Assembly: GCA_963764165.1 (NCBI GenBank)
Contig: CAVXRD010000002.1
Span: forward strand, 2,592,001-2,656,000
Length of the DNA stretch: 64,000 nt
Reading direction: 5' to 3'
Source of the DNA: an uncultured Verrucomicrobiae bacterium
Lineage (GTDB): Bacteria; Verrucomicrobiota; Verrucomicrobiia; Limisphaerales; Palsa-1400
Each line of letters starts with the position of its first letter. The first letter of the stretch is position 1. Both the position numbers and the translations under genes were made by a program. Positions 33,383-50,643 of the stretch are shown in pieces. A model generated the notes under the pieces. The model had not been told where the DNA came from, did no database searches, and saw only the letters and a list, made by a program, of their open reading frames with translations.

Positions 33383-33577
33383 ATGAAAACGGAAACCGTT
33401 GAAATTCCCGCCGCCGTTCTCGCGTCCGTCGAAACTCTCGACGAGCTTCAGGACTGGCTCACGGCACAGCATCCCGGCGTCATCGCCGAATGGCGGGCGG
33501 CGCGGCGCGAAGATGTGGCTGGTAAATTCAAACCTTGGAAACCCCGCCATCAGGCGTGTCCTGCCAAGTCGAAATAG
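33383..33577 (+). CDS. Small protein, probable type II antitoxin (64 aa)
   Basis: MKTETVEIPAAVLASVETLDELQDWL...ARREDVAGKFKPWK; TACACT-N6-ATG start; overlaps a RelE-like remnant. Confidence 0.6.
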   Translation: MKTETVEIPAAVLASVETLDELQDWLTAQHPGVIAEWRAARREDVAGKFKPWKPRHQACPAKSK

Positions 33578-33691
33578 GCGGCAAAGCTTCGGGTGGGCGA
33601 TTATCGCGTCCTCCATTGGATTTATCCCGCAAAAAAGATTGTCCGCATCTGCCGCATCCAGCACCGCTCCGAAGCTTATCGTCATCTCTGA
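33556..33691 (+). pseudogene. RelE/ParE-family toxin remnant (internal deletion, out of frame)
   Basis: GTG-start MSCQVEI, then in another frame KLRVGDYRVLHWIYPAKKIVRICRIQHRSEAYRHL*, the typical RelE C-terminus. Confidence 0.75.
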
Positions 33692-33748: not shown

Positions 33749-33814
33749 TTGGCACTTTACCCCCGTTGTTTTGGCACGCGCATCTCTGGACAACCGATTC
33801 GGCTGATTTAAACT
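33749..33814 (+). promoter_or_regulatory. TTGGCAC direct-repeat operator with promoter (site 1)
   Basis: TTGGCACtttacccccgttgttTTGGCAC-N9-TGGACA-N16-TAAACT. Confidence 0.7.
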
Positions 33815-33927
33815 CGGTCATCACATGCATTTGCGAATTTCGTTGACGGCTTGTATTCTCAGCTCGGAACTCCTAGCGTCAACGCAGTGCAATTTCCTGT
33901 CCTCCAGCCAATAGAAATCGCCTCCCC

Positions 33928-34281
33928 GTGAAACCGCTTTGTTTAACCGCCGCTTGCTGCCTGCTGATCTCCCCCAGCCCGGCGGGCGCCCATCAAAGCG
34001 GCGCTCTTGTTGACAAGATCAACCCATTCATCGGCGCCAGCACCAGCACTGATCTTGGCGAGGGCAAACCGTTCACGGTTCGCGCGCGTGAAAATTCCGC
34101 GGAGAACGATTATATCCAGTCCGCCAAGCTCAGCGGCAAGCTGCTCGGGCGCGCGTGGCTGCGGCACGGCGAAGTCGTGGCGGGCGGAACACTCGATCTG
34201 CTCTGGGCTCCGAAGCCGAATCAAGCGTGGGGATCGTCCCCGGATGTCTTGCCGCCGCGCAATTTTCCGCCGCACAATTAA
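33928..34281 (+). pseudogene. GH92 alpha-mannosidase collapsed by a large in-frame internal deletion
   Basis: Signal peptide plus GH92 N-terminus (LVDKINPFIG) joined directly to the GH92 C-terminus (FTVRARENSAENDYIQSAKL.G..L.RAWLRH.EVVAGGTL); compare the end of the 39299-41593 product. Confidence 0.8.
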
Positions 34282-34288
34282 GACCCAT

Positions 34289-36842
34289 ATGGCCAATATG
34301 ACTCTGCGATGCGTGCCGGCAATCATTTGCTTGTGCGCAGGCTCCGCCATGTCGCAGACGGCCTATTTCGCGGATGGCTTCCACGGCGGATTTTACGGCC
34401 ATTATCCAGCGAACTTCACGCAGTTCATGGTGGACTCGATGCGGAAGAATCCGAATTGGAAATTGAACTTGGAGATCGAGCCGGAGACATGGGATTTTGC
34501 GAGCACCAACACGCCGGATGATCTGGCGGCCTTCAAGGCGCTGGCGGCGGATCAATCCGTGAATGGGCGTGTCGAGTTCGTCAATCCGGCTTACGGGCAG
34601 AGTTATCTTTGGAATATTTCCGGCGAGAGCGTGATTCAGCAATTGGATCGCGGCATGAAGAAAATTCGCGAGCAATTTCCAAACGCGGATTTCTCGACCT
34701 ATTCGAGCGAGGAGCCGTGCTTTACCAGTGCGCTGCCGGGGATTTTGCGCTCGTTTGGATTCAGCCACGCCGTCCTGAAAAATCCAAATACGTGCTGGGG
34801 CGGATACACGCGGGCTTATGGGAAGGAATTGGTGAATTGGATCGGATCCGATGGAACGGCGATTTCGAACTGTGCCGCGCTACGAAATCGAATCGCTCAA
34901 ACCGAACTCCACTTGGGAAACCATCGCGGCCGCCAACGGATCGAATTACGTCACCGCCGCGCTCAAAGACGGAATAGAGCATCCGGTTGGAATGTGCCTG
35001 CAAGATGCTGGGTGGCGATGGGGGCCGTGGCTGAGCCACGGCAAAACCGCGTATCGGCCCACGGAATCAGTGACGTGGCGCGAGTACTTCGACAAGATAA
35101 CGACAAACGCGCCCGCGCCGGATTGGGCGTTCGATCAGGAAGACGTGCGCGTAAGTTTGGTTTGGGGTTCACAAATTTTGCAGCACGTCGCACAAAATGT
35201 GCGGCAGGCGGAGAATCGGATTGTGATGGCGGAAAAAATGGCGACGCTCTCAAGCGCCCTGCTCGACACTCCGTGGCCGAAAGCGCCGCTGGACGAGGCA
35301 TGGCGAACTCTCCTTCTCTCGCAGCATCACGACTGCTGGATTGTTCCTTATAATCGCCGCTTTGATCGCACATGGGCGGAAAACGTCGCGCTTTGGACTG
35401 AATCCACGCGGAAAACAAGCGACGACGTCATTGCCGATTCCTCCAAGAACTTTTGCTCGCATTCGCAAATTGGCGGAGCGCAAACAATTACGGTCTTCAA
35501 CACGACAGCCTTCGCGCGCGCTGAATGCGCAGCGGTCGAATTGCCTTCGGGGTGGTCATCCGCGAAAATGCTCGACTCAAGCCATCACGAAGTCATCTCC
35601 CAATTGATTGTCGAAAATTCGAAAACGAATATCCTGTTCCGTGCGCTAACGCCCCCTCTTGGATTCAATACATATCAATTGCAAAAAGGCTCCGTGCAAC
35701 TGCAGGTTGGAGCCACTGCCACCATCGACGGAAACGGGATGGCGCGAATGGAATCGGATTTTTATTCGATGCTCCTTGATCCGAAGAAAGGTGGAACCAT
35801 CGTGGAATTAACCGCAAAGAAGCTGGGTGGTAAAAATCTCGTGGCGGATGGCGTTGGCGCCGTGCTGAACGAGGCGCGTGGTTTTTTTCCGAAACAAGCG
35901 CGTTTTTATTCCACAACAAATGCCGCGGCGGAGATTCAAATTATTGAAACGGGCCCGTTGGAAATCTCGGTTAAAATTTCCGGGCAAATTGCGGACAATC
36001 ACGTCGATCAATGGATCATAATGCACGAAGGCGAGCCTCGCATTGATTTCAAAACGCGCATGGATTGGAAGGGCGAACAGGAAATCGGCGCGAAGCCGGC
36101 GCCGGGAGGATTCCAGGCGACCGATGATCGCAAAGCGTTTTATGACGACCGCTGCAAGCTTCGCGTGCTTTTTCCCTTCGCGTTGAAGAATGAGAAAATC
36201 TTCAAGGATGCGCCCTTCGCGGTGACGGAAAGCCATTTGACCAACACGTTTTTCGACCGCTGGTCGGAAATAAAAAATAACATCGTCCTTCATTGGGTGG
36301 ACGCGTGCGACGCCTCCAGCGGAATCGGTATCGCGCTTTTCACCGATCAAACCACGAGTTATTCGAGCGCTCCTGGCGAGCCGCTCGGGTTAACCGCGCA
36401 ATACAGCGGCACCGCTTTGTGGGGGCGGAACTACAGTTTGAACGGCCCGACCGAACTTCGTTACGCGTTGCTTCCGCACGCTGGCGATTGGCAGCGGGCG
36501 CGCATTTGGGCCGCCGCCGATGAATGGAACGAGCCGCTCTTCGCATTAACTAATGCAGTCGAGGCTGGCGGACAGTCATTGCTCTCCATCGATGGCGACG
36601 CGCTGGAAGTCCCAACCATGCGAGTCGTTGACGGCAAAGTCGTAGTGCGGCTGTTCAATCCATCGCGCGAAGCGGTCTCGGCGACTCTTTATTACAACGG
36701 AAAAATTCAGAGGGCGGAAATGGTTCAACTCAACGGCGAGGCGATCCATTCGCTCACTTTGCAGAAGGATTCCAGCGGTCACGCGATGTTCACCGCGAGT
36801 TTGCCAAAATTTGGCGTCGGCACGATTCGCATCACCCCGTGA
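34289..36842 (+). pseudogene. GH38-like alpha-mannosidase, frameshifted near 34863 (pseudogene or sequencing error)
   Basis: DGFHGG...LPGIL...WIGSDGT in one frame continues as TVPRY...LSQHHDCW in the next; removing one T from TTT at 34863-34865 joins them. Confidence 0.7.
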
Positions 36843-36849
36843 TCTTCCA

Positions 36850-39177
36850 ATGGTTCGCCAGATCAAATATGTTCTCTTGATGGGATTGGTTTTCGCGCTG
36901 TTCCTGCTTGGGTGCGCCAGGCCGGCTTGCGCGCAAATTCTTTCCAACGGTGGATTCGAGGCAGGCTTGAGCAATTGGAGCGCCCGGCTCGCGGTCGGCG
37001 GCGCCGCCGTGTTTGCAAATACGACCTCCGACATCCATTCCGGCACCAATGCCTGCCTGATCTCTGTCTCCGATGCCGGCACTTCTCCGAACTCGGTGCG
37101 CCTCGTCAGCAGCACGTTTACGGCGAGCGCGGCGGATACGTACGTTTTGAGATTTTGGGCCAGCGCGAGCGTGGATTTCGCCAATTTGGGAATTAATATT
37201 ATCGGAGCCATGCCGACCGCTCCATTGATTCCGTTCGAGATTTCCACCAACGAGGACAACTATCAGGAATACCTGTTCGCCTTCAAAGCGAGCGGGCAGG
37301 CATCGATTGCCTTCAATTTTCAAACGGCCGGAAATTACTGGCTCGATGACGTCGAAGTGTTGGATCTTACCAACAACGACGGATGGGACATCCCGATGAC
37401 GTATCTCTGGCAATGGGGGCAGGAACGATATTCGCTCACGAACTCAGTGGGATGGGGCGGAGGCGACAACGACAAATCGGTCCTTCTGCCGGACGGCAGT
37501 GTGGCTTGGATTTTCAACGACACATGGACGGAGACCTTCAACTTTTATTCCAACATTCACGGCGGCGGCGACCTCCCGCGCAACAGTGTCGTGCATCAAG
37601 TGGGCACCAATCTTTACATGCTGAAAACGAGCACTGTTTTCGTTCCGACGAACACGAACGATCTTTATTGGATCGGCGGGCCAGTGGTGGAAAGCAACAA
37701 GCTGCTCGTCCTGGTCAGCGAAGTGAATGCCACGGCGATCACGCGCGTCGGAACTTCTATCGCGCAGCTATCATTGCCCGCTCTCACGCTTGACAGCATC
37801 ACGACGGTGGCGTCACCGGCTTCGGACGATTACAACCCCGTGCTTAATGGCCAGGACGGATACTACTACATTTACTGGGCATCGAACAATTTTGTCCGCG
37901 TTGCGCGAACGCCCGTCGGCCAGCTCGCCGTCAGTTCGGCGTGGAATTATTGGACGCCCGGCGCGTGGGTCACGAACCACTCGCAGGCCGTCCCGCTGCC
38001 GTATTTGCAGGGCGCATGGTCTTGCGCGCAGCTTGGCGTGAGCAATTTCGCGATGGTTTACATGCCGGATTTGGATTGGAATATCGTGGCGCAATTCGCT
38101 CCGACCCCACTGGGCCCGTGGAGCGCTCCCATTAATGTAGTTGACACACCGTATCAATGGGGCGAGCTGAATTACATGCCGAACATCTGCGCCGGAACCG
38201 GCAGCAACGGGCTTTACACCATCGGCTATTCCGACAACGGATCGCCGGACGGGCTGGCCAAAGTCGCCGCAGACAAGTCGTATTACAATCCGCATTTCGT
38301 CACCGCCAACTTGCTGGCGCTCTCGCCATTTTCGGCCATCGCGGGCGCAGGCGGCCCCGGTTCGCGCATCTCGATCAAGTTCGCCGCCGACCAGGATTAC
38401 GGGAACGATCTCGTGAACGTCACCCAGCCGGCGGGAGTTCTCAGCTCGAGCAACTGGTTTAATTTTTTCGGGCCGGACAGCGCCAGCAAAGGCGCGACTA
38501 ACGTTCCGTTTTACTCCTCGCAAGGCCAGCGTTATCAATCCTCCGCGGTGCTTGTTTATGATTGGGCGGGCGAAATCAACCTCATCGGAAACAACGCGCC
38601 TTTGAGCAACAACGTGGCGCTGATGAACAGCTTCATCAATGTGCAGAACAACGGCTGGTATCTGTCCGTCACCAATCTCGATGCGCCGTTCACAAATGGA
38701 TATTCGGTTTATTTTTACTATCAAGGTGGAGAGGTTGGTCGCGGCGGCCAAAATTATCTGCGCTATTACAGCGGCAAGACGACGAATGGAGCGTCCACCG
38801 GGCTTGAGCGCTGGGATTTGTACTCGACAGCGGCGACCAACAACGGCGTGTTTGTGCAGGGCCTGACGCCGTTGTCCACGAGCGCGGCCAACGAAACGCC
38901 GAACGCCAATTACTGTGTGTTTACAAACCTCTATGGCGGCGCTTTCAGCTTGATGATCACCAATGGAAATTACGGCGGCATCAGCGCCATTGAAATTGTG
39001 GCCAGCAGCCCGCCGCTCTCCGCGCAATTTGTGAACGGAAATATCGTATTGACGTGGTATCAAGGCACGCTCCAGCAAACAAGCGACCTCACTGCTCCGT
39101 GGTCAGATGTCGTCGCCACGTCGCCTTATTCGCTCCCGGCGACTGCGCCTCAGCAATTTTTCCGGATCGCGCCGTAA
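36850..39177 (+). CDS. Secreted multidomain protein (CBM-like N-terminus, DUF4185/DUF5005-like propeller, conserved C-terminal tag)
   Basis: Signal peptide; LSNGGFEAG...WLDDV; GGGD..SV.LPDG..AWIFNDTW, RNSVV, APTPLGPWS. Confidence 0.65.
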   Translation: MVRQIKYVLLMGLVFALFLLGCARPACAQILSNGGFEAGLSNWSARLAVGGAAVFANTTSDIHSGTNACLISVSDAGTSPNSVRLVSSTFTASAADTYVLRFWASASVDFANLGINIIGAMPTAPLIPFEISTNEDNYQEYLFAFKASGQASIAFNFQTAGNYWLDDVEVLDLTNNDGWDIPMTYLWQWGQERYSLTNSVGWGGGDNDKSVLLPDGSVAWIFNDTWTETFNFYSNIHGGGDLPRNSVVHQVGTNLYMLKTSTVFVPTNTNDLYWIGGPVVESNKLLVLVSEVNATAITRVGTSIAQLSLPALTLDSITTVASPASDDYNPVLNGQDGYYYIYWASNNFVRVARTPVGQLAVSSAWNYWTPGAWVTNHSQAVPLPYLQGAWSCAQLGVSNFAMVYMPDLDWNIVAQFAPTPLGPWSAPINVVDTPYQWGELNYMPNICAGTGSNGLYTIGYSDNGSPDGLAKVAADKSYYNPHFVTANLLALSPFSAIAGAGGPGSRISIKFAADQDYGNDLVNVTQPAGVLSSSNWFNFFGPDSASKGATNVPFYSSQGQRYQSSAVLVYDWAGEINLIGNNAPLSNNVALMNSFINVQNNGWYLSVTNLDAPFTNGYSVYFYYQGGEVGRGGQNYLRYYSGKTTNGASTGLERWDLYSTAATNNGVFVQGLTPLSTSAANETPNANYCVFTNLYGGAFSLMITNGNYGGISAIEIVASSPPLSAQFVNGNIVLTWYQGTLQQTSDLTAPWSDVVATSPYSLPATAPQQFFRIAP

Positions 39178-39203
39178 CCGAGGTGTAATTGAAAGTGGGG
39201 CAA

Positions 39204-39305
39204 GAGGTAGGGACGCCTCGCCGAGGCGTCCGAGGACTCTCGCGATTCCGAACGCGGTCGAAAAGCGCCACAGCCCCGGACGCCTCGGCGAGGCGTCCCT
39301 ACCTC
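39204..39305. repeat. REP doublet, family B
   Basis: Perfect 29-bp IR gaggtagggacgcctcgccgaggcgtccg; preceded at 39182 by ggtgtaattgaaagtgggg, a relic of the 19299-type element end. Confidence 0.9.
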
Positions 39306-41593
39306 AACTGCGAGATGGCGGCGGGCGGGCGGGCGTCGCTTCCGGTGGCCCATTTGTAATCGGGGCCGGAGTCCATTTCGAACTTCACTTCGCCGCCAGC
39401 GGTGATCTGTCCGTGCGTCAAATAGATTTTATCCAGCGGCGAGCTGTTGAGCGACGCGCCATGAATGTACGGACGCTGCGGTCCGTTGTTCCGGGCGTTG
39501 ATCACGAAATGCTGGTTGGTGGCGACCGTGAGCGTGGCCTTGTCAAATATCGGGCTGCCAATGGCGTATTGGTCCGTCCCCGGGCAGACCGGGTAAATTC
39601 CCAAGGCGCTGAATACATACCAGGCGGACATTTGCCCGTTGTCCTCATCGCCGCTCAATCCATCTGGCGTGGATTGATAAAGCTCGTTCATCACCTGGCG
39701 AATGCGAATCTGTGTTTTCCACGGCTGGCCAGCGTAATCGTAGAGGTAAATAACGTGATGAACAGGCTCGTTGCCGTGGGCGTATTGGCCGAGGTTTTGC
39801 GCCACCATCTCATTCATTTCATGAATCATTCCGTGATAGGTGCCGGTTTTCACCTCGGAGCCCGCCGCGAACATGGCGTCGAGCTTTGCCGCAAACTTTT
39901 TGTCGCCGCCCATCAATTCAATCAAGGCGGGGATATCCTGCATCACGCTCCAGCTCCATTGCCACGCGTTCCCTTCGACAAACGGGCCGCCCCACTCGAT
40001 GGGATCGAACGGCTCGCTCCATTTGCCGTCCTCCTGGCGGCCGCGCATGAAGCCAACCGACGCGTCAAATACATTTGTAAAATTCATGGCGGAGCGCGCG
40101 AATTGGCGGGCTTCTGCTTCGCGTCCAGCGGCTAGCGCAAGCGTGCCCGCGCAAAAATCGTCATAGGAGTACTCGAGCGTTTTCGCGGTGGTGTCGGAGG
40201 TCTTCGGATTTGGCAAATATCCCAGCGTGTCAAAATATTTGCATCCGCCGCGGCCCATTCCAAAGAAACCTTCGTTATGAGCATCGTGCATGACCGCGCC
40301 AGCCGCATCGGCCGGATTAAACGAGCGGACATTCTTCGCCCACGCATCGGCCAAAACGGAAAATGCGTGATTGCCGATCATCGCATTGCGGTTGCCGGGG
40401 CTCGACCATTGGGGAAGCCAGCCGCTTTCGCGATACGCGTTGAGAACGCCTTGCACGATCTCTGCGCTGAAATCGGGAAACAGCAGATTATAGAGAGGAT
40501 GGGCCGCGCGGAACGTGTCCCAATATCCGGTGTCCGTGTACATGTAACCGGAGTGAATTTTCCCGTCGTAAGGGCTGAAATACGTCGGCTTCCCGTCGGC
40601 CCCGATTTCATAAAATCGATGCGGAAACAAAACGCTGCGGTAAAGCGCGCTGTAAAACGTGCGCCGCTGCTCTTCAGACCCGCCTTCGACGGCGGCGCGG
40701 TTCAAAATGGAATTCCACCGCTCCTCGCCGCGCCGGCGAACCTTGTCAAATGAATCACTGCCGATCTCCTGATCCATCGTGCGCTGCGCCTGCTCAAGCC
40801 CGATGAAGGATGACGCCACCCGGCACTCCGCCACCGGCGTCTTGCCGGTGTCGAATTGCAGATACGCGCCGACGTGATGCCCTTCGATCTTCGATCCCGC
40901 TTGCGCGACATCGTTGGACCAAACGCCGCTCACTTGAAAGGGCTGGTCGAATGTGATTACGAAATAATTCCCGAAATTATCGGGCACCGCGCCGCGATTA
41001 TTTCGCGCCACGCCGATGATTTTATTTTCCTTGGGCAATATCTCGACCGACGAATCTTTTTCGCTAGGAAACAAATCGAGCACGACAAATCCGTCCCCCG
41101 ATTTGGAAAACGAGAAACGGAAGCGCGCGGCCCGTTCGGTGGCCGTCACCTCGGCGATCACGTTCCATTTATCGAGGAGGACTTTGTAGTAATTGGGCTG
41201 GGCCTGTTCGTTGGCGTGGGAAAATTCCGATTTTCGATCCTCCTCGTTGATGGCCAGCCTGCCAAAGACCGGCATGAACGCGAACGCGCCGTATTCTGGA
41301 ATCCACGCGCTCGGCTGATGGGTCTCGCGGATGCCGCGAATCTCGTGGTGCCGGTACTGGTAGTAGAACGAATCCTTTTGCGGCTGCGTATAGGGCGCCC
41401 ACGTATTCATTGGAAACGGCCACGCAATGGCGGGATATGTATTGCCGTGCGAGAACGTCCAGGAGGAGTCCGTCCCTTGAAGGGGATTGGCCAGAAACAC
41501 TGGCGGCAAATTCGATCCGCCCGCCTGCGCGGCATTCGCCGCCGATAGGATTGAGGCAATCCAAAACATCTTAATCGAGCGCAAAAGGGACAT
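39299..41593 (-). CDS. GH92 alpha-1,2-mannosidase
   Basis: HGNTYP, THQPS.W, WDTFRA, MIGNH, KTLEYSYDD, EGNAWQW, QYAHGNEP, GDEDNGQMSAWYVFSALG.YPVCPG. Confidence 0.93.
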   Translation of the reverse strand: MSLLRSIKMFWIASILSAANAAQAGGSNLPPVFLANPLQGTDSSWTFSHGNTYPAIAWPFPMNTWAPYTQPQKDSFYYQYRHHEIRGIRETHQPSAWIPEYGAFAFMPVFGRLAINEEDRKSEFSHANEQAQPNYYKVLLDKWNVIAEVTATERAARFRFSFSKSGDGFVVLDLFPSEKDSSVEILPKENKIIGVARNNRGAVPDNFGNYFVITFDQPFQVSGVWSNDVAQAGSKIEGHHVGAYLQFDTGKTPVAECRVASSFIGLEQAQRTMDQEIGSDSFDKVRRRGEERWNSILNRAAVEGGSEEQRRTFYSALYRSVLFPHRFYEIGADGKPTYFSPYDGKIHSGYMYTDTGYWDTFRAAHPLYNLLFPDFSAEIVQGVLNAYRESGWLPQWSSPGNRNAMIGNHAFSVLADAWAKNVRSFNPADAAGAVMHDAHNEGFFGMGRGGCKYFDTLGYLPNPKTSDTTAKTLEYSYDDFCAGTLALAAGREAEARQFARSAMNFTNVFDASVGFMRGRQEDGKWSEPFDPIEWGGPFVEGNAWQWSWSVMQDIPALIELMGGDKKFAAKLDAMFAAGSEVKTGTYHGMIHEMNEMVAQNLGQYAHGNEPVHHVIYLYDYAGQPWKTQIRIRQVMNELYQSTPDGLSGDEDNGQMSAWYVFSALGIYPVCPGTDQYAIGSPIFDKATLTVATNQHFVINARNNGPQRPYIHGASLNSSPLDKIYLTHGQITAGGEVKFEMDSGPDYKWATGSDARPPAAISQLR

Positions 41594-41624
41594 AGCTTTT
41601 AAACTTCCGTAACCGCCGGGGCTT

Positions 41625-41668
41625 TGTCGATGGGTTTGAGTGCCAAAGCTGCTGGCATTGCGTGCCAA
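41625..41668 (-). promoter_or_regulatory. TTGGCAC direct-repeat operator (site 2), upstream of GH92
   Basis: Minus strand: TTGGCACgcaatgccagcagctTTGGCAC-N9-TCGACA. Confidence 0.7.
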
Positions 41669-41697
41669 AATCGGTCGCATACGATTTTAAGAAGGCC

Positions 41698-41762
41698 GGC
41701 GGTGCGAGGCTGCCGCCGAGCCGTTCCCTTCAATGATGGCTCGGCAGGAGCCTCGCCCTGCC
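41698..41762. repeat. Degenerate REP doublet, family A
   Basis: ggcggtgcgaggctgccgccgagcc ... ggctcggcaggagcctcgccctgcc. Confidence 0.75.
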
Positions 41763-41898
41763 GTAATTCGCCAATTGTCGAGGGAAATTGACCATGCAGA
41801 ACTTGAGTTTCACTGGGGAGCGCCTGTAACCTTCGGCAAGAACTTCAGCCCTTTTCGCGCCCCCGCCTCTGACGGATGGGACGCCGAAGTTTACTGTA

Positions 41899-44800
41899 AT
41901 GCGCGTTGTCCGACATGAAAAAAGCTGGCTCGCCTCGCTCCTAATCGCGGGGATGTGCCTGCATGGCATCGCGGCGGCTCGCGCGGAAGCGGACGGCTCC
42001 CCCCCAATCATCACGAACATTTCGCAACTTTCTCAGGACTTCGAGAATCTCTCCGCGCGCGCCCGGATTCGCGCGGAACTCACCGGCACCGTTTTCATCG
42101 GCGGATCCAACGAGACGGTGGTTCTCATTGACGGCGATTCTCAACCGCATGTTGTCAAATCAAAAGATGGCCAGGCGTTGAATCGCGGCCAGCGGGTCCT
42201 GCTGGAAGGTTATTGCATCCGCGAGGGGACCAATTTGCTCACCGATTCGCTGCCGCTGATCGACAATGACGGGACGCACTCGATGTCCGCAAAATCAGCG
42301 GGCGCGTGGCTTGAGGCCGGCTGGCAGCCCATCGAAGTTCGCTACTTCAATCAACTGGGCGACCGTGGATTGGAGGTTTCCATCGAGGGGCCCGGCCTGC
42401 AGCCGCAAACGATTCCCAACTCGATGCTTTTTCATTCGGAGCGGGAGCCGGGCTTGCTCTATCAATGTTTCGAGGGCGAGTGGCTCGCCATGCCCGATTT
42501 CAATTCATTGAAACCTTTCAAGTCCGGTGTCATTTCCAATTTCAACATCGACGTGGCTGGCCGCGAAACAAATTACGGCGTCACTTTTTCCGGGAGCATC
42601 GCCATTCCGAGCCCTGGATTTTACACGTTCACCTGCCGTTCCGATGACGGCTCGCTGGTGTTTCTTGGGAATGATTTGTTGACAGCAAAAGCCACCGGCG
42701 CGACAAACCTGCCGCCGCTTCCGATTTGCGGCGCGGGCCAATCGCTGGGCGCAAATCCGGCCAGCGGAGAATTTTGCGCCGCGCTGGAGGGGGTGGTCAC
42801 CTTTGCGGCGGTGGACTCCGGACATCTCAATATTGAATTATCCGGTGGCCGCGAACACGCGCTCCTTCAGATGCCGAATGCGACGGGCGTTGTCCCGCCT
42901 GATTTGATGGGTTCGCGGATTCGGGCCGCCGGGATTTGCCGGGCGACGTTTACACCTGACGGAGATCATGTGGCGGGATTCTTGCGGGTTTCGGGCGAGG
43001 AGCAAATCCAGATTCTCCAAAGCTCTCAACACCTGCGTCCTTCGGCCCTGCCGGGAACGGAAGGCGGACTGCCAATCCTCACCACCATTGAGCAAGCAAA
43101 GCAAATGAGCCGCGAGGAAGCAAAGCGCGGTTATCCCGTCCGCGTGCGCGGAGTGATTACGTTTGTGTGGCCCGACGCCGGATTTTTTCTCCAGGACGCG
43201 ACGTGGTCGATTGAGGTCCAAATGACCCCGCAGATTTCGCGGGACAAACCGCGCATTGGGGACTATTGGGAAGTCGAAGGACAAACGCTGGCGGGATTCG
43301 CGCCGGACATTCGCGCCACGCGCGCGGCGCGGCTGGGGCTTGGAGTTTTGCCTGAACCCGTCCGCCCGAATTGGGGCCAATGGCTGGATGGCAGCCTTGA
43401 CACCGAATATGTGGAACTGGAGGGCATCGCTTCGTCCTCGGACGAATCCTCGCTTTCATTGTTGACGCGCGGCGGACGGCTGACGGTGCAATTGCCGGAA
43501 TTGCCGCAAAAAAAATTGGCCGAAGTGCAAGGGGCGCTGGTAAGAATTCGAGGCTGCCTCATTCCGGGCCGCGATCCCGCAACGCAGCAGGTGAAGCTCG
43601 GCTCGTTCGCCCTTCGCAACGCATCCCTCGCCATTGAGGAGGCGGCCCCGGCGGATCCGTTTGCGATGCCATCGGAGCGGACGGCGGATTTGCTGTTATT
43701 CGAATCGCACGCGAGCCCCATCCGCCGCGTCCGGCTCCACGGCGTTTTTCTCCTGCAGCACGACGGCGTTTGCTACCTGATGGATGGCACGAACGGATTG
43801 CAAATTTCGCCCAAACACGCGGTGGACTTTCACGGCGGCGATTTGGTGGATGTGGTGGGTTTTCCCAATTTGGACGGCCCGTCGCCTCTGTTGCGGGATG
43901 CCGAAATGCGTGCCACCGCTTCCGGGCCGCTTCCGCCGCCGCGGACAGTTTCGCCGACAAATTTATTCGGCGAGGAATATGACTCAACACTCGCGCAGAT
44001 CGAGGCCGTCCTGGTGTCCTACCGGATCAGCGAGGCCGATCAAATTCTGCAACTGCGATCCGGCCAGCGCCTTTGGACGGCGCGCCTGCCGATCAGCGCC
44101 GGCAAACTGCCGAGCATCGAACCGGGCAGCGTCCTGCGCTTGACAGGCGTTTACACCGCGCAAGGCGGTGACCGCGCGGCCGGGCGACCGAGCGAATCGT
44201 TCGAATTGCTCTTGAGCAGCCGGGCTGGCGTGGTGGTGCTGCGGCAGCCGTCGTGGCTGACGGCGCGCCACGCGCTCGTGGTGGCGGGCGCGCTTCTGGC
44301 GACGCTGCTGCTGGCCTCGATTTGGATTTGGGCGCTCAAGCGCGAGGTGGATCAGCGCACGGTGGAGCTGAAAGTGGAAATCGAAGACCACAAGCGAACC
44401 GAATTGGAGCTGGAGGAAAAAACAAAAATGCTGACGCGCGAAATCGAGCAGCGCGCCAAGATGCAGGTGGAAATCGACCGGGGCCATCGCGAACTCCTGA
44501 TCACTTCGCGGCGCGCCGGGATGGCGGAAGTGGCGACGAGCGTGCTGCACAATGTCGGCAACGTTCTCACAAGCGTGAATCTTCTCGGAACGTCCATCAT
44601 GGATCGTGTCCGCGATTCAAAAATCGCCAGCGTCACCAAGCTTGGCGAATTGCTGAAAAGCAACAAGCCGCGCCTGAACGAATTCCTGACCTCGGACGAG
44701 CGCGGAAGAACGGTCCCCGGATTCGTCGAGCATCTCGGTGAGCGGCTGCAGCAGGAGCACACGGAATTGATCGGGCTGGTGAAGTCGCTCAACGATAGCA

Positions 44801-45348
44801 TTGACCACATCAACGAAATCGTTTCGACCCAGCAGGCTTACGCGAAGATTTCCGGCGTGCTGGAGACGGTGGCGCCGGCGGAAGTGGTCGAGGACGCGCT
44901 TCGCATGCACGGCGAGGCGCTGCACCGCCACGGAGTCGAGATCGTCCGCAAATTCACCCACACGCTGGCGGCCACGATGGATCGCCACAAAGTCCTGCAA
45001 ATCCTTTTCAACCTGCTCGAAAACGCCAAACATGCCTGCATGCAAACACCCGAACCGGACAAACGGGTGGTGATCACGGTTGAACCCGCGGCCATCAGCC
45101 GGATTCGCATTGTCGTGGCCGACAATGGAATTGGAATTCAGCCGGAGAACTTGCCGCGAATTTTCGACCAGGGATTCTCGACGCGCCGGGACGGCCACGG
45201 CTTCGGTCTTCACAGCAGCGTCCTGGCGGCGCAAGACATGGGCGGCAGTTTGTCAGCGCAGAGCGACGGGCCGGGAAAGGGCGCGACGTTCACGCTCGAA
45301 CTGCCGTTGACGCCGCCCGCCGCAAAACACACAGCGAACGGATCATGA
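41899..45348 (+). CDS. Sensor histidine kinase with PA14 and OB-like repeat ectodomain
   Basis: LIDNDGTH, RSDDGS (PA14); repeated VRVRGVIT/VELEG modules; one TM; H-box EVATSVLHNVGN; NLLENA, DNGIGI, GHGFGLH. Confidence 0.88.
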   Translation: MRVVRHEKSWLASLLIAGMCLHGIAAARAEADGSPPIITNISQLSQDFENLSARARIRAELTGTVFIGGSNETVVLIDGDSQPHVVKSKDGQALNRGQRVLLEGYCIREGTNLLTDSLPLIDNDGTHSMSAKSAGAWLEAGWQPIEVRYFNQLGDRGLEVSIEGPGLQPQTIPNSMLFHSEREPGLLYQCFEGEWLAMPDFNSLKPFKSGVISNFNIDVAGRETNYGVTFSGSIAIPSPGFYTFTCRSDDGSLVFLGNDLLTAKATGATNLPPLPICGAGQSLGANPASGEFCAALEGVVTFAAVDSGHLNIELSGGREHALLQMPNATGVVPPDLMGSRIRAAGICRATFTPDGDHVAGFLRVSGEEQIQILQSSQHLRPSALPGTEGGLPILTTIEQAKQMSREEAKRGYPVRVRGVITFVWPDAGFFLQDATWSIEVQMTPQISRDKPRIGDYWEVEGQTLAGFAPDIRATRAARLGLGVLPEPVRPNWGQWLDGSLDTEYVELEGIASSSDESSLSLLTRGGRLTVQLPELPQKKLAEVQGALVRIRGCLIPGRDPATQQVKLGSFALRNASLAIEEAAPADPFAMPSERTADLLLFESHASPIRRVRLHGVFLLQHDGVCYLMDGTNGLQISPKHAVDFHGGDLVDVVGFPNLDGPSPLLRDAEMRATASGPLPPPRTVSPTNLFGEEYDSTLAQIEAVLVSYRISEADQILQLRSGQRLWTARLPISAGKLPSIEPGSVLRLTGVYTAQGGDRAAGRPSESFELLLSSRAGVVVLRQPSWLTARHALVVAGALLATLLLASIWIWALKREVDQRTVELKVEIEDHKRTELELEEKTKMLTREIEQRAKMQVEIDRGHRELLITSRRAGMAEVATSVLHNVGNVLTSVNLLGTSIMDRVRDSKIASVTKLGELLKSNKPRLNEFLTSDERGRTVPGFVEHLGERLQQEHTELIGLVKSLNDSIDHINEIVSTQQAYAKISGVLETVAPAEVVEDALRMHGEALHRHGVEIVRKFTHTLAATMDRHKVLQILFNLLENAKHACMQTPEPDKRVVITVEPAAISRIRIVVADNGIGIQPENLPRIFDQGFSTRRDGHGFGLHSSVLAAQDMGGSLSAQSDGPGKGATFTLELPLTPPAAKHTANGS

Positions 45349-47384
45349 ATCAAAACCCCGCCATCGATTCGTCCGGCAAGCCTCGAATTTTAATCGTCGA
45401 TGACAATCCGTCCGTCCACGAGGCGTTCACCAGAATTCTCCGCAGCGACGCGCCGGACCAGGAATTGGAGAGCGAGGAAGCCCTCTTGTTCGGCGAGCCA
45501 GACGCTCCGGCAATCAAGAAGCTCGAATACTCCGTCGACCATGCCATGTCCGGCCAGGAAGCCGTCGACAAAGTGCGCATGGCGACGGAACAGAAGCGCC
45601 CGTTTCAAGTGGCTTTCGTGGACCTCCGCATGCCGGGCATTGACGGCGTCAAGACGATTGAATTGATTTGGGAGCTTGATGCGCAGATTCAGACGGTGAT
45701 TTGCACGGCCTACGCCGATTACCGCTGGCGCGATCTGGCCCGGCGTTTCGGCAAGACGGACCGATTGCTGGTGTTGAAAAAGCCGTTTCACGATATTGAA
45801 GTGATGCAGTTGGCGAGCACGCTCACGCAGAAATGGGCGCTTGGAAAACAAGCCGCGCTGAAGCTGGACCAGATGGAGTCGCTCGTCGCCAAGCGAACGC
45901 AGAAGCTCCTCGACCTGCAAAAGAGGGAGCACCAGCGCCAGCGGGATCTTGACCAGGCGAAGCTTCGCAACCTGCTGCAATTGGCGCAGGAATTCCGCAC
46001 GCCGCTGACGCTCATCCTGAATCCCATTGCGGACTTGATGAACGGTGTTCCCCTTGACCGCGCGAAACAGGAGGTCATTCATCGCAGCGCCCAAAACGTT
46101 CTGCGCTGGCTCGACGATGCGGCGCTGATTCGCAGGCTGGAGTCGGAGGACAAGCCTCTGGAACTGGCGGATTTGCATTTGATTCCGTTCCTGCGCGGTT
46201 TGGTTGAATCGTTCTCCGCGCGCGGCCAGGCCAGGGGCGTTCAAATTGATTTTGCCCCGGTTCAAACAGAAATGACGATTGCCACGGATGTGGCGGCGTT
46301 GGAAAAGGCGCTCTTCTCGCTTTTGGGATGGAGCGTCGAAGCTGCGCCAGACAAAGGCCGCGTTCTCATCCGCCTCGGCCTCGAAAACAATGCCGCGGCC
46401 ATCGAACTCACCGTCGCGAAACCGAGGGACCTCCCCTCGCCGCTGACAAAAGAGTCCGACACGGCGCAGCTTTTGGTGCGTGAAATTTTGCATCGCCTGA
46501 ATGGCACGATGGGCATCAGACATTCGGACGAGGCGCTCAAGATGGATATTGGCCTGGGCGAACTTCAACCGCCGGCCACGGCTGCCGCAGCCGCGCCCGC
46601 CGTGGAGCACGCGGAAGAGAAGGAATTGCCGTTATTATTGACGGTGGAGGTGAGTGACGATCTCCGCGCTTTTATTCGCGAGGGCCTGGGCGCGGAATAT
46701 CGATTCGTGGAAACGACGCGAGCCGGCGAAGCCCTCATTCAAGCGCGCGAAAACGTGCCGGATTTGATCATCATCGATTTCGACGCCGTCCCCTCCCACG
46801 CCATCAGCCTTTGCGCGGAGATCAAAAACGACCAACTGACCAGCCACATCCCGGTCATCTTGATTGGGGCGGACGCGTCCGACGCGACCCAGCTCAACGC
46901 CTTGAAAGCAGGGGCTGACGATTGCCTGGCCAAGCCGTTCCGGCTGGCGTTGCTCAAGGCCCGCGTCGGCAACCTGCTGGAAACACGCCGCAAGCTTCAC
47001 CAGCATTTCCAAGGCCCCACCCCGATCCAGCCCGCCGAGATGGCTGGGAACCAGATGGACGCGGAATTTCTCCGCCGAGTCGTGGATACGGTCGAGGCGA
47101 ACCTGGCCGATTACGAATTTGACGTAGAAACGCTTGGGCACCGGCTGGGCGTGAGCCGCAGGCAATTGTTCCGCAAATTCAAGGCCATTGCAGGTTGCAC
47201 GCCGAATGTTTTCATCCGCGAAGTCCGCCTTAAGCGCGCGGCCCGCTTGCTGGAAGAAGGGCGCCTGACGATTTCGGAAATCATTTACGCTGTGGGATTT
47301 TCCGATCCCAAGCATTTTCGGACGGTTTTCCGGGAGCGTTTCGGGGTGCTTCCGGGCGAATACGCCAAAAAGCCGGCCCCATGA
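45345..47384 (+). CDS. Hybrid regulator: REC - degenerate HisKA/HATPase - REC - AraC HTH
   Basis: ILIVDDN..VDLRMPG; AQEFRTPLTLIL (His absent); GADDCLAKPF; SRRQLFRKFK..RLKRAARLL..VGFSDPKHF. Confidence 0.85.
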   Translation: MNQNPAIDSSGKPRILIVDDNPSVHEAFTRILRSDAPDQELESEEALLFGEPDAPAIKKLEYSVDHAMSGQEAVDKVRMATEQKRPFQVAFVDLRMPGIDGVKTIELIWELDAQIQTVICTAYADYRWRDLARRFGKTDRLLVLKKPFHDIEVMQLASTLTQKWALGKQAALKLDQMESLVAKRTQKLLDLQKREHQRQRDLDQAKLRNLLQLAQEFRTPLTLILNPIADLMNGVPLDRAKQEVIHRSAQNVLRWLDDAALIRRLESEDKPLELADLHLIPFLRGLVESFSARGQARGVQIDFAPVQTEMTIATDVAALEKALFSLLGWSVEAAPDKGRVLIRLGLENNAAAIELTVAKPRDLPSPLTKESDTAQLLVREILHRLNGTMGIRHSDEALKMDIGLGELQPPATAAAAAPAVEHAEEKELPLLLTVEVSDDLRAFIREGLGAEYRFVETTRAGEALIQARENVPDLIIIDFDAVPSHAISLCAEIKNDQLTSHIPVILIGADASDATQLNALKAGADDCLAKPFRLALLKARVGNLLETRRKLHQHFQGPTPIQPAEMAGNQMDAEFLRRVVDTVEANLADYEFDVETLGHRLGVSRRQLFRKFKAIAGCTPNVFIREVRLKRAARLLEEGRLTISEIIYAVGFSDPKHFRTVFRERFGVLPGEYAKKPAP

Positions 47385-47393
47385 CTTGAAGGG

Positions 47394-47437
47394 TTGGCAC
47401 TATACCCCCGGCATTTTGGCACATGGCGCCATCGACA
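47394..47437 (+). promoter_or_regulatory. TTGGCAC direct-repeat operator (site 3)
   Basis: TTGGCACtatacccccggcattTTGGCAC-N9-TCGACA; near-identical to site 1. Confidence 0.72.
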
Positions 47438-47596
47438 ACCGCGCTGGAACGTGTTAGAACTCTCTTCAATGACCCATGAAGAACCGCTCCAAGCGTGGAC
47501 GCGCCATCTCCCGTTCGCGCCGTCGCATGTGCCTTGCGGCTCTTCTTTGCGCCGTTTCGGCCAGAAAACGGCTGCAATGCAAATGAAGCAACAATT

Positions 47597-49669
47597 ATGA
47601 AATCCTCACAGAAAAAATCCCTCACCATTGCCTCCGCCTCCGCCCTTGCCGCGAGCATGGCGCATGGCGATATTCTTTATACTCCCATAAACCAAACCAT
47701 TGTCGCGGGTGGCAATGACACCTACACGTTCGACCTTAACCAGGACGGCAGCGCTGACTTTTTGATTGAGTTCGACAACAATAACGCCCTTAAGCCCTAT
47801 ATAAATGATAGCGTCGGCACAACTGGCGCCACGCTGTCCTACGTGCTCTCCGACCCCAGCACGACTGGTTTGCCCTTGGCGACGAATGGCATGCTGATCG
47901 ATCAAAATTATGAATCGGCCCAATCGGTGGGATATTTCTATGAAAATACCGGTGATACCGTCGTCGGCGACTGGGACAGCGGCGGCACAAATATTGACGC
48001 CTATGTCGGGCTGGAGTTGATCGACACCAACGGCGTCACTCATTATGGCTGGGCTCAATTCATTTATAACTCCAAGACGGTCGATAACGGAGTCACCGGC
48101 ATATTGACGATTGTTGATTGCGCCATGAATACGGATACCAATGGAATTTATGCGGGACAAACGGCTCCGTTCGGTCCGCCTTCAATCGTCACGCCGCCCG
48201 CCTCAGAAACGAACGCCATCGGAGGTGTGGCCAATTTTGAAGTCATCGCCATAGGCTCCCCGGCACCAACATATCAATGGATGGCCGGCGCGGTCGGCAG
48301 CGGCATTTACACCAACCTGAGCGATTCCGCGACGGTTTCAGGTGTCACAAATAGCACGCTGACCATATCGAATCTGACCTCGGCAAATGCAGAAGACTAT
48401 ATTGTCCTGGTGTCGAATGTGGACGGCACTGTCTCCAATTCGCCGCCCGCGACGCTGACCGTGCTTCCGCTGCTCATCACTGGGCTGTCGCCGTCACCAG
48501 TAGAGTTGTATGCGGGAGGAACAGCGCATATCACAGCAAGCTGCCAAAGCGCTTCGTCCACCCAGTTTCAATGGTTGAAAAATGGAGCGCCACTGTCAGA
48601 CGGAGGCCGGGTCTCGGGCTCCCACGCTAGCACGCTCACTATTGATTCCCTGTCGCTGTCGGATTCGGGGAACTACTCCGTGATCGCCTCGAATAGCTAC
48701 GGCGCGGTCACGAGCAAGGTGGATGCCGTCACGGTCATCACGCCGCCCAGCCCCTACCAGCAAGCCGTGGCGCAGCTTTCGCCAGTTTGCTACTACAGCT
48801 TCAGCGAAACCAATGATCCGGCGATGACCAATGTCATCGCTTATGACTTCGTCGGAGGATTGAACGGCGTCTACGGTTACCAGGTTGAAAACGGGAATAG
48901 CAATTATAACATTGCCGGCCCGCAGCTTGCCGACGGTTATGCTGGGTTCCCGTCAAATAACACCGCGATGCTCGTCGGCCCGACATCTCACAGCCCGATT
49001 TCCTGGGTCGTGACACCCCCGCCCAATCTTGACACCAACACGGTGACTTACGTCTGTTGGCTGTATCCGACTGAGGCTCAAGCGGCCTGGAACGTGATTC
49101 TGAGCTACCGCTCCCAAGTGGCGGGCACCGCCAACGGAATGAACTTCAGCGGCACCGGGGACGGCGACCTGGCCTACCACTGGAACGACAACGAGTACGG
49201 CTATGACTCGGGACTCTATGTGCCCATATCCGAATGGTCGATGGCGGCGGAAGCCGTCTCGGCCACAAACGTTACGTTCTACCTGTTTAACACCAGCGAG
49301 ATGCTGTCGGCTACCAATGTCTACAATCAAGTCGTCCAGGCATTCAATACCGATGGCAATTTCGGCGGGGATAGCGTTGATGGCAACTTCGTGGGTGAAT
49401 TGGATGAAATTGCCATCTTCAATCAAACACTGTCGTCGAACCAGCTCGCCGGGCTTTTTAATGTCGCTGTCACTGGAATAAATCCGAATGCGCCCGTCAC
49501 GATCACGATTCAGCCCGCCGGAGCAGGCAATGTGACATTGACTTGGCCGCAGGGCACGCTGCTGCAAGCCCCGGCGCTCACTGGCCCTTGGACCACCAAT
49601 GCCGCCACTTCGCCTTATACGACGGCGACTTCGGGAACGCAGCAATTTTACAAGGTGATAGTGCAATAG
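47597..49669 (+). CDS. Secreted Ig-domain / LamG-like protein with conserved C-terminal tag
   Basis: Signal peptide MKSSQKK..AHG; two Ig domains (YQW, FQWLKNG, DSGNYSV); LamG-like PVCYYSF...FVGELDEIAIFN. Confidence 0.8.
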   Translation: MKSSQKKSLTIASASALAASMAHGDILYTPINQTIVAGGNDTYTFDLNQDGSADFLIEFDNNNALKPYINDSVGTTGATLSYVLSDPSTTGLPLATNGMLIDQNYESAQSVGYFYENTGDTVVGDWDSGGTNIDAYVGLELIDTNGVTHYGWAQFIYNSKTVDNGVTGILTIVDCAMNTDTNGIYAGQTAPFGPPSIVTPPASETNAIGGVANFEVIAIGSPAPTYQWMAGAVGSGIYTNLSDSATVSGVTNSTLTISNLTSANAEDYIVLVSNVDGTVSNSPPATLTVLPLLITGLSPSPVELYAGGTAHITASCQSASSTQFQWLKNGAPLSDGGRVSGSHASTLTIDSLSLSDSGNYSVIASNSYGAVTSKVDAVTVITPPSPYQQAVAQLSPVCYYSFSETNDPAMTNVIAYDFVGGLNGVYGYQVENGNSNYNIAGPQLADGYAGFPSNNTAMLVGPTSHSPISWVVTPPPNLDTNTVTYVCWLYPTEAQAAWNVILSYRSQVAGTANGMNFSGTGDGDLAYHWNDNEYGYDSGLYVPISEWSMAAEAVSATNVTFYLFNTSEMLSATNVYNQVVQAFNTDGNFGGDSVDGNFVGELDEIAIFNQTLSSNQLAGLFNVAVTGINPNAPVTITIQPAGAGNVTLTWPQGTLLQAPALTGPWTTNAATSPYTTATSGTQQFYKVIVQ

Positions 49670-49776: not shown

Positions 49777-50643
49777 CTAAATGAGCCGGACGTAGACCCG
49801 GCGCGGCGGGAGTTCCGAACCGCCCATGCGCAGAGCCAAATTCGCCGTTTCGCGGTGCTCATGTTCGCCGCCGCGAAATTGAAGCCATTTCACGGGTTGT
49901 GATGGATCGTAGACCTTCAAATTATGGTAGAGCAGGCAAAGGTTCCCCAATCCCCTCAATCGCGCATTTGGGTGTATGACCACGCGCACATCGTAAAATA
50001 GAACTTCACCTTGACGCCGGATCAGCAGCGTTCCGATTGGCTGGTCGCCATCGAAAAGGATGCTCGACATGTCCGGCTCAAATCCCGACGTCGCGGCCGA
50101 TCCCCAATATCGGAAGAGCTCGCTTTGCGTCATCAATTTGTAGCGGGCGACCAGGTCCAGGATAATTTGGGCGGGAAATTGGCGGATGGACTTTGTCTGC
50201 CACGTTGGAGGAATGTCCTCTTCGTAGCGCTCCATCATTTTGCCAACGCGCTTGGCGGCCACCAAGCCTTCGATGCGGAAGAATCGCTCGGTCCTCAGCA
50301 CGTCGAATCCGTTTGCCTTGAGGAAAGCAACGCGGGGATCGTCGTCCGCCAATAATTCGCCGTAGAGCAATTTGCCCATGTCCGCCACCCGGTATTTCAC
50401 CGCCGCCGCCTCAATGAGCCGCCGGGCAATATCATCGTGAGCGACTCCCGGCTGGCAGGCGAAAACGAAACGGACGAAGTCTGCTTCAACCCAACTGGCC
50501 AGCGCGCCTACGAACCTCTCCACCGGCACGGCCTTCACCGCCGCCAGAAATTCCGAATCGGAAGGATAACTGAAATTCCGCAGCAAATGCCGCACCCGCG
50601 GAACCTCGGAACTTTGCGGAGCGCGCATTAGCAAATCATTCAT
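49777..50643 (-). CDS. Hypothetical protein, possibly tandem GNAT-like fold
   Basis: Long ORF; AFLKANGF and RLRGLG resemble GNAT motifs; no firm family. Confidence 0.55.
   Translation of the reverse strand: MNDLLMRAPQSSEVPRVRHLLRNFSYPSDSEFLAAVKAVPVERFVGALASWVEADFVRFVFACQPGVAHDDIARRLIEAAAVKYRVADMGKLLYGELLADDDPRVAFLKANGFDVLRTERFFRIEGLVAAKRVGKMMERYEEDIPPTWQTKSIRQFPAQIILDLVARYKLMTQSELFRYWGSAATSGFEPDMSSILFDGDQPIGTLLIRRQGEVLFYDVRVVIHPNARLRGLGNLCLLYHNLKVYDPSQPVKWLQFRGGEHEHRETANLALRMGGSELPPRRVYVRLI

Follow-up and report, generated by a model that had tools for sequence, protein, structure and literature searches.

A 64,000-nucleotide stretch of the genome of an uncultured Verrucomicrobiae bacterium (GTDB order Limisphaerales, Palsa-1400; assembly GCA_963764165.1, contig CAVXRD010000002.1, positions 2,592,001 to 2,656,000 of the forward strand) is referred to here as the window. 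It carries a cluster of genes for glycoside hydrolases (GH) and secreted proteins, together with a membrane sensor histidine kinase and an adjoining regulator that ends in an AraC domain (Table 1). A pattern scan of the window found the composite sequence TTGGCAC-N15-TTGGCAC-N9-TSGACA at exactly three places, called sites 1, 2 and 3. As the initial annotation had stated, these lie upstream of an operon comprising a GH92 remnant, a GH38-like gene and a secreted-protein gene (site 1), of an intact GH92 gene (site 2) and of an Ig/LamG gene (site 3). Site 2 falls within the first 30 codons of the longest GH92 open reading frame (ORF). The three sites are very likely real operators at which the AraC-tailed regulator acts as an activator.

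The composite pattern matched in none of 100 shuffles of the window. The lone TTGGCAC heptamer is not enriched there (8 copies observed, 10.5 expected), and 876 copies are found across the 7.0-Mb genome (5 contigs, 97% complete). Pairs of the heptamer separated by 15 nucleotides occur three times in the genome, all inside the window, and pairs at any other spacing from 10 to 24 do not occur in it. The operator signal is the paired spacing, rather than the single heptamer. We scanned both strands of the 7.0-Mb genome with a 38-column matrix built from 61 sites of other genomes. At a threshold of at least 12 bits the matrix recovered the three sites of the window and nothing else, and the reversed genome gave no match at that threshold. 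Because only these three sites are recovered, the regulon in this genome is local, as had been proposed; no distal member reaches 12 bits. The core TWTACCCCCG, noticed earlier in sites 1 and 3, is real and belongs to the operator. Autoregulation finds no support in this genome, where the kinase gene has no upstream site; in two relatives the kinase operon is headed by operator sites.

Table 1. Operators, predicted promoter elements and genes of the locus (positions within the window)
Feature	Position	Strand	Details
Site 1	33749-33792	+	Half-site 1: TGGCAC 33750-33755, CCC 33762-33764; 46.2 bits
Site 1, half-site 2	TGGCAC 33772-33777, CTC 33784-33786	+	Predicted -35 TGGACA 33787-33792
Predicted -10, promoter 1	33809-33814	+	TAAACT, 16-bp spacer; from sequence and family pattern
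GH92 remnant	33928-34281	+	Signal peptide plus the initial ~45 residues fused in frame to the final ~70
GH38-like alpha-mannosidase gene	34289-36842	+	Frameshifted near 34865-34869
Intact secreted protein	36850-39177	+	CBM4_9-like domain and DUF5005/DUF4185; ORF open from 36811, putative ATG 36850
Intact GH92	39299-41593	-	Putative start ATG 41593
Predicted -10, promoter 2	41602-41607	-	GAAGTT, 17-bp spacer
Site 2	41625-41668	-	Weakest operator, first CCC box degenerate; 20.5 bits
Site 2, predicted -35	41630-41625	-	TCGACA
Sensor histidine kinase	41899-45348	+	1149 aa, membrane; between sites 2 and 3
Regulator	45345-47384	+	679 aa; overlaps kinase stop; between sites 2 and 3
Site 3	47394-47437	+	Starts 10 bp past regulator stop codon; 42.2 bits
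Site 3, predicted -35	47432-47437	+	TCGACA
Predicted -10, promoter 3	47455-47461	+	TAGAAC/AGAACT, 17-18-bp spacer
Secreted Ig-Ig-LamG protein	47597-49669	+	Headed by site 3; ORF open from 47495, putative ATG 47597

To define the motif across the family, loci were gathered through the regulator protein, and the motif was not used for collection. This gave 64 non-redundant sites, window included, after an 80% identity filter. Their consensus is nTGGCAC-nn-TW-n-CMCC-S-nnn-TTTTGGCAC-N6-CCC-GCGACA-N17-tAnnnT. TGGCAC occupies operator positions 2-7 and 24-29, and CCC positions 14-16 and 36-38. Because the CCC box recurs in this way, what is repeated, with a period of 22 bp, is a bipartite half-site, TGGCAC-N6-(C/A)CC, and not the bare heptamer only. 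The period is 23 in six further loci. Conservation is limited to the boxes, the -35 and the -10, and the flanks of the operator hold about 0 bits.

The hexamer behind the second half-site is out of phase with the 22-bp period. GCGACA was therefore rejected as a third repeat and taken as a -35 element. Among the predicted -35 hexamers GCGACA is the most frequent (19/64), ahead of ACGACA (6/64) and TCGACA (5/64), with C40 and G41 retained in 63 of the 64 sites. An AnnnT lies 16-18 bp past the -35 in 62 sites, compared with 0-7 of 64 at other offsets, which supports the earlier proposal of an activator bound beside a weak -35. Many tRNA and tmRNA promoters of the same genome show TTGACA or TTGCnn with (T)AnnnT 16-18 bp downstream, and for this reason GCGACA and TCGACA are taken as probable weakened forms of a housekeeping -35. 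GCGACA-N17-TAnnnT showed no enrichment genome-wide. A whole predicted promoter, from operator through -35 to -10, can now be paired with its matching candidate regulator.

Several further features of these promoters were seen. The putative ATG of the intact GH92 gene lies 9 nt past the predicted -10 of promoter 2, so its mRNA would be nearly leaderless. Among the 61 sites with a downstream ORF, the first ORF begins at operator positions 71-83 in 14. Such starts, which were picked mechanically, lie about 10 nt or less from the predicted start site and suggest leaderless or near-leaderless mRNAs. A related string, CGGACG-N17-TAnnnT, occurs 143 times genome-wide against about 29 expected; it is probably a repeated element and no promoter class. 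Two good operators at L237:1900 and 4231 (G640:C32), on a contig separate from the regulator, have near-consensus TTGCCG and TTGTCG -35 hexamers displaced by one base. They head a gene for an extracytoplasmic function sigma factor fused to a secretin-like domain, and a GH92 gene.

We then compared the distribution of operator and regulator. In 401 genomes of the order, with an AraC profile cut-off of E 1e-35 or better, the regulator is present in 10, the exact pattern in 9 and both in 8. The exact pattern is thus carried by 8/10 regulator genomes and by 1/391 others, which upholds the link expected between motif and regulator in related genomes. The single case without a regulator, G697, is an 80% complete genome with its site on a 6.6-kb contig. 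The two regulator genomes lacking the exact pattern, G611 and G739, have nearby matrix sites of 29 and 38 bits. Among the matches listed, the pattern written backwards occurs once each in four genomes. G009, which has no copy of the regulator, shows an exact match; because this match falls in coding sequence and does not contain the core, we attribute it to chance.

Other collections gave similar results. Of 80 loci listed in a genome-collection scan by receiver-domain patterns, 6 were true orthologs and the remaining 74 served as controls. All six full-length ortholog loci among these matches have one to three sites. The 74 receiver-only control loci (1.156 Mb, again among the matches listed) hold 2 weak pattern matches, and the matrix gave no hit in 1.17 Mb of controls. 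In metagenomes 52 of 77 ortholog loci have a site, as do 18 of the 22 that are at least 10 kb long. The four long exceptions are L187, which holds a 75-residue regulator remnant, and L157, L161 and L170. In these last three the sites may sit past the stored flank, because similar loci have theirs some 10 kb away from the AraC domain. Operator sites are also present on further contigs of regulator-bearing genomes. A phylum-wide sample of 401 genomes held one ortholog beyond that of the window, in the same order.

The boxes also change with the protein. Six loci have SRRQLLRK in their first recognition helix, and a search that masked the TGGCAC columns revealed altered boxes in them. Box 1 is TTGGCG or GTGGCT and box 2 is of TGTCYC type, with CCC, -35 and -10 unchanged. 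Two loci with an FMSRRQLFRK helix have TTGGCC, and two more SRRQLLRK loci, both short, showed no site. Recognition helix 2 is nearly invariant across the family. This co-variation is as expected if helix 1 reads TGGCAC, and together with the co-occurrence it supports the proposal that the sites are likely read by the regulator at 45345. Genome G012 has three regulator paralogs with a common operator. Cross-regulation is likely there because the paralogs share it.

The regulator itself is a composite protein. Its order is REC1, coiled coil, degenerate HisKA (His to Gln), degenerate HATPase, REC2 and AraC. From HisKA onward it is homologous to the cytoplasmic halves of hybrid two-component systems (HTCS). 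The best PDB match to REC2-AraC is BT4124R (12AW; E 1.3e-42), and HTCS kinase domains align to the central region (32% over 155 aa). Among the matches listed, 120 long homologs (31-45% identity) all have HisKA, HATPase and REC, and nearly all have AraC. No single-chain homolog above 45% identity was found among proteins of 1190-3395 aa, which is weak evidence; sensor kinase and regulator are encoded by separate genes in the window, as they are at all loci in which the pair was seen.

We counted functional residues in 57 distinct full-length members of the regulator family and in 120 canonical HTCS among the matches listed. In REC1 the DD, Thr and Lys are kept in 57/57 and the phospho-Asp in 55/57. 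The inner HisKA His is kept in 2 members; another residue stands in its place in 22, and 33 have lost it through deletion of the domain. REC2 has Asp in 16 (Glu in 22), Thr/Ser in 19 and Lys in 30. The canonical proteins keep both His and Asp in 120/120. At the level of sequence, the regulator's own kinase is degenerate and REC2 is mostly non-phosphorylatable. The REC2 of the window regulator has Asp and Lys, with Gly at the Thr/Ser position. The C/SHIP-D.K latch is kept throughout, with its His in 53 of the 53 members that have REC2 and its Asp and Lys each in 57/57. The latch D and K are 39 residues apart, as are D1344 and K1383 in BT4124.

In a quick tree with a midpoint root (rows de-duplicated at 93%; 56 of 80 kept), the regulator family forms one clade against 12 HTCS rows with support of 99. 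One ortholog locus, L035, is titled as an Actinomycetota bin and nests among Verrucomicrobiota rows with matching gene order, probably through a binning or labelling error. At three further loci of the window's own genome, a kinase of this type (47-52%) is paired with a receiver of the REC1 type (44-47%), behind which a kinase module follows. Since the same two partners are paired at these loci, a native kinase-receiver pair would seem to have had its output swapped for an HTCS tail. In an AlphaFold model, one 83-residue helix runs from REC1 into DHp. A homodimer model of residues 10-265 scored 0.51, which passes the mark set for a homodimer, and the best control scored 0.00. For comparison, 20 of 30 solved homodimers attain that mark, as does 1 of 23 monomers. 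The runs share at least 70% of their contacts, and the predicted local distance difference test (pLDDT) is at least 74.

The adjacent kinase has a signal peptide, periplasmic OB-fold repeats with an inserted, putative circularly permuted PA14 domain that retains SDDG, one transmembrane helix, an LHNVGN H-box and HATPase_c. A fold search supports the OB folds (Z 9.7, root-mean-square deviation 2.4, 84 residues). The PA14 halves stand in swapped order, and their sequence matches two solved PA14 proteins. The swapped order holds in 8/8 homologs checked, and an SDDG motif is invariant in 42 homologs. The DD motif of PA14 binds calcium and sugar. In other clades a different N-terminal domain, which we take to be discoidin-like, replaces PA14. 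The window's genome encodes about ten kinases with the same periplasmic OB-fold repeat (examples at G000:C2:442708, C2:3515948 and C3:176385, and six more), three of which have the full PA14-containing region. No description of this OB-fold kinase family was found in a literature search.

Taken together, these observations give a picture that we regard as probable. The adjacent AraC-tailed regulator likely binds the three boxes. Its predicted effect is to turn on all three promoters once its N-terminal receiver has been phosphorylated by the neighbouring kinase, which likely detects a mannose-containing glycan. In this scheme a sugar would bind the periplasmic OB-fold/PA14 region of the kinase (step 1). 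Its conserved His would pass phosphate to REC1, as residue conservation and gene pairing suggest (step 2). In the models, REC1 and the coiled coil would then dimerize, or dimerize more tightly, and this would undo the inherited SHIP-D.K latch that ties the AraC domain to REC2 (step 3). Two AraC domains would then occupy the two half-sites, which are spaced by two helical turns; TGGCAC is likely read by helix 1 and the CCC box by helix 2. The proximal domain, abutting the non-consensus -35, would recruit the housekeeping sigma factor (step 4). The targets would be the GH92, which resembles alpha-1,2-mannosidases, the Ig/LamG surface protein and the decaying GH92-GH38-DUF5005 operon (step 5).

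The state of the target genes bears on the substrate. Site 1 does head an operon, as described before, and it had been missed that two of its three genes are broken. About 660 codons of the GH92 remnant are gone in frame between two similar GK(T/P)F stretches. In the relatives L238, L241 and L246 this operon consists of GDSL, GH92 and GH38 genes, with intact GH38 orthologs of 856-888 aa; the GDSL gene is absent from the window. The GH38 frameshift is possibly an assembly error, because 2 of 97 conserved genes, GH38 among them, look frameshifted in this assembly. The nearest solved relatives of the intact GH92 are the alpha-1,2-mannosidases 2WVY/2WVX (E ~1e-225). The Ig-Ig-LamG protein has an unnamed N-terminal domain followed by two Ig domains and LamG, and domain searches found no catalytic domain in it. 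SusD family members were not found in the 97% complete genome, in a search for which the Bacteroides thetaiotaomicron control was positive. TonB-receptor matches number 12, all outside the window, and one of 95 stored regulator-locus stretches has such a receptor, outside any site-led operon. The earlier view of the locus as free of TonB and SusC/SusD is thereby supported.

The operator and regulator could be as described and the signal instead a complex mixed glycan, such as a microbial exopolysaccharide or a fungal or plant wall polymer, or the system could serve mainly a surface adhesion layer, with glycosidases as variable cargo. The first genes behind the 64 sites are most often surface proteins of Ig/LamG and related type (16), with GH78-like (9), GH2 (7), an unknown secreted family (6), prepilin-type (4), GDSL (4) and GH92 genes (3). 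The 22 loci of at least 12 kb have GH92 in 11 and GH78 in 4, and in the window site 1 is still near consensus with two of the three mannosidase genes broken. This cargo is mixed family-wide, and it is mannosidase-rich in the window's own clade (14 rows and support of 97 in the quick tree), which has the PA14-type kinase. The five long loci of that clade have GH2 beta-mannosidase-like genes in 4, as far as two GH2 queries that may cross-hit can tell, GH92 and GH38 in 3 each, and no GH78. Among the 15 long loci whose kinase has the other sensor, GH92 occurs in 7, GH78 in 4 and GH38 in 1. The intact GH92 also stands very near the solved alpha-1,2-mannosidases. The term mannoside regulon therefore fits the window's clade, with its GH92, GH38 and GH2 beta-mannosidase-like genes, and does not describe the whole family, which also carries rhamnosidases. 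We lean towards mannoside specificity for that clade, and give a mixed-glycan or adhesion signal a lesser though substantial chance.

Three other explanations concern the sites themselves. Sigma-54 promoters have the consensus TGGCAC-N5-TTGC. The first hexamer is identical to the operator box, and the kinase is of AtoS/ZraS type by weak NCBIfam hits, so the repeats might be tandem sigma-54 promoters with TTGGCAC as the -24 element. This was rejected as scarcely credible, since TTGC or TGC at -12 is present in 0/64 sites for either box, where CCC or ACC stands instead; the motif also tracks the AraC gene across genomes, with a sigma-70-type -10 at a fixed distance in nearly every site. It is somewhat easier to imagine, but still improbable, that the regulator represses, or that the conserved CCCGCGAC element is an alternative-sigma -35 or the site of a second protein. 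C40 and G41 are kept beyond the need of a merely degraded -35, the first half-site has no such CG, and the GCGACA promoter string is not enriched in the genome. The geometry nevertheless fits known AraC activator sites overlapping the -35, as described in PMC11983282; two G640 sites carry TTGCCG or TTGTCG in place of the hexamer, and no other transcription factor or sigma gene recurs as a cluster downstream of the sites. Finally, the copies might be passive relics of promoter duplication in one mobile locus, bound by nothing. All three lie inside 14 kb, and the locus is patchy (10/401 order genomes) and decaying here. The absence of conservation in the flanks, the sites on other contigs of regulator-bearing genomes and the boxes that shift along with the recognition helix make such relics very improbable.

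Activation by the regulator in response to a mannose-containing glycan also has points that weigh against it. Binding, start sites and expression are all predicted, from sequence and models. The order-wide positives are partly circular, as the loci that supplied the pattern overlap some of the positive genomes, and related genomes are not independent; the 390 negative genomes are not circular. A site was not seen in 25 of the 77 metagenome loci, most of them short. The co-variation of helix and box perhaps reflects two or three events on the quick tree, and the homodimer pass may stem from likeness to the solved LvrB dimer 8VC9. Phosphorylation of REC2 is possible in the window regulator, where its Asp is present. 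Fold searches of the sensor model listed OB folds alone and no PA14 structure, which is no evidence against PA14, and the prediction of a mannose-containing ligand is weakened by the similar PA14 sensors on three other kinases of the genome. Behind this operator, other clades carry genes for GH78/GH106 rhamnosidases, pectate-lyase-like proteins, prepilins and unknown surface proteins. No transporter that would account for sugar uptake was found in the regulon.

The closest known systems are the HTCS of Bacteroides. Their operators are described as tandem direct repeats, 21 bp apart on average (PMC3878776), and a latch is reported to hold the DNA-binding domain shut (PMC11253607, PMC13292587), with BT4124R deposited as 12AW (PMC13292587). 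As in these accounts, the sites here are direct repeats about two helical turns apart (period 22, sometimes 23), the C/SHIP-D.K latch is kept and the glycan regulons are local. Paralogs share one motif, as predicted in PMC3878776 for HTCS_Man-1/2/3. Unlike an HTCS, the regulator lacks both a propeller/Y_Y_Y sensor and a membrane anchor. The His has been lost, often together with the entire kinase module, REC2 is mostly a pseudo-receiver, and input would be supplied by an added N-terminal REC and by an OB-fold sensor kinase encoded separately. There is no SusC/SusD, and the promoter is of sigma-70-type -35/-10. In the available text and supplements of PMC3878776 the TGGCAC motif was not found; its reverse complement, GTGCCA, occurs three times in the HTCS_Man alignment. 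Upstream of BT2629/BT3784, in supplement file 2 of that paper, GTGCCA and GCGACA lie 21 bp apart on the coding strand, a likeness that may be chance.

The system works like an HTCS regulon but falls outside HTCS on three defining features, namely a single polypeptide from sensor to AraC, its own HisKA His, and a full phospho-accepting REC beside AraC. The SusC/SusD pair by which a polysaccharide utilization locus of Bacteroidota is recognized is likewise missing from the locus. What is present are the features of an AraC-type tandem operator: direct-repeat half-sites, a non-consensus -35 and one co-occurring AraC protein. The araI1/araI2 half-sites at PBAD of Escherichia coli are described as bipartite, the proximal one overlapping the -35, and the AraC consensus is given as TAGCxxxTxxxxCCxxA (PMC11983282). 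By eye, its TnGC and CC are spaced as in TGGCAC-N6-CCC, whereas the period is 21 in AraC and 22 here and the bases differ in both boxes. AraC binds its sugar directly, whereas the regulator here is predicted to be phosphorylated. For the N-terminal REC - coiled coil - DHp - CA part of the regulator model, Foldseek ranks Leptospira LvrB first (8VC9; E 1e-15, 14% identity), at a low TM-score of 0.20 by query. LvrB is a REC-kinase hybrid; unlike the regulator, it has no REC2-AraC output, and in the regulator family the kinase part is degenerate or deleted. No regulon of this kind in Verrucomicrobiota was found described in the literature searched, a search that did not extend to subscription journals or RegPrecise.

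A broader history can be put forward only tentatively. The cytoplasmic half of a Bacteroidota-type HTCS might have been captured by a lineage of Verrucomicrobiota and joined to that lineage's own kinase/receiver pair, the kinase and receiver chemistry then being lost stepwise with the latch kept. A distant receiver would open the latch of a pseudo-receiver through the coiled coil, and interchangeable periplasmic lectin modules (permuted PA14 or discoidin-like) would feed one operator common to all paralogs.

Other features of the neighbourhood and cargo were recorded. At 33383-33691 (+), upstream of site 1, a 64-codon ORF is followed by one stop and an in-frame 37-residue ParE/RelE-like fragment (Pfam E 0.0036, below cut-off). 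This looks like a decayed toxin-antitoxin pair and possibly marks the edge of the inserted locus. A 288-aa GNAT-like gene at 49777-50643 (-) has no operator. It accompanies the regulator in 8/22 long loci and often sits beside a phosphodiesterase/sulfatase-TPR gene (7/22 long loci). The unnamed N-terminal domain of the Ig/LamG targets (47597-48200) clusters with small PEP-CTERM proteins, such as L114:1860-2492, which likewise sit behind operators; the shared domain has no Pfam or NCBIfam hit. Large secreted families represented by L160:10908-13697, L171:763-3753 and L030:1967-4372 recur behind operators. Pfam and NCBIfam searches gave no hit for these representatives, CBM6 repeats are present in one relative, and the families are candidates for new glycan-active proteins. 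Elsewhere in the genome, about nine tRNA genes, one of them a tRNA-Stop according to ARAGORN, lie at G000:C2:1559019-1561157, possibly as a mobile tRNA array.

According to PMC11596606, Verrucomicrobiota are abundant in soil and peat, where they degrade plant matter. The regulator is likely an HTCS-derived chimera fed by the adjacent kinase, a point that the initial annotation overlooked. The predicted promoter and its regulator could serve as a marker linking several unnamed surface proteins to SusC/SusD-independent glycan use. The family is also a natural series, with the His intact, the His lost, the kinase deleted and REC2 deleted, which makes it testable whether the latch between receiver and DNA-binding domain opens without phosphorylation of that receiver. 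If the HTCS tail was indeed captured as suggested, the Ig/LamG, prepilin-type and other surface proteins would form the parts list of a SusC/SusD-independent glycan capture system.

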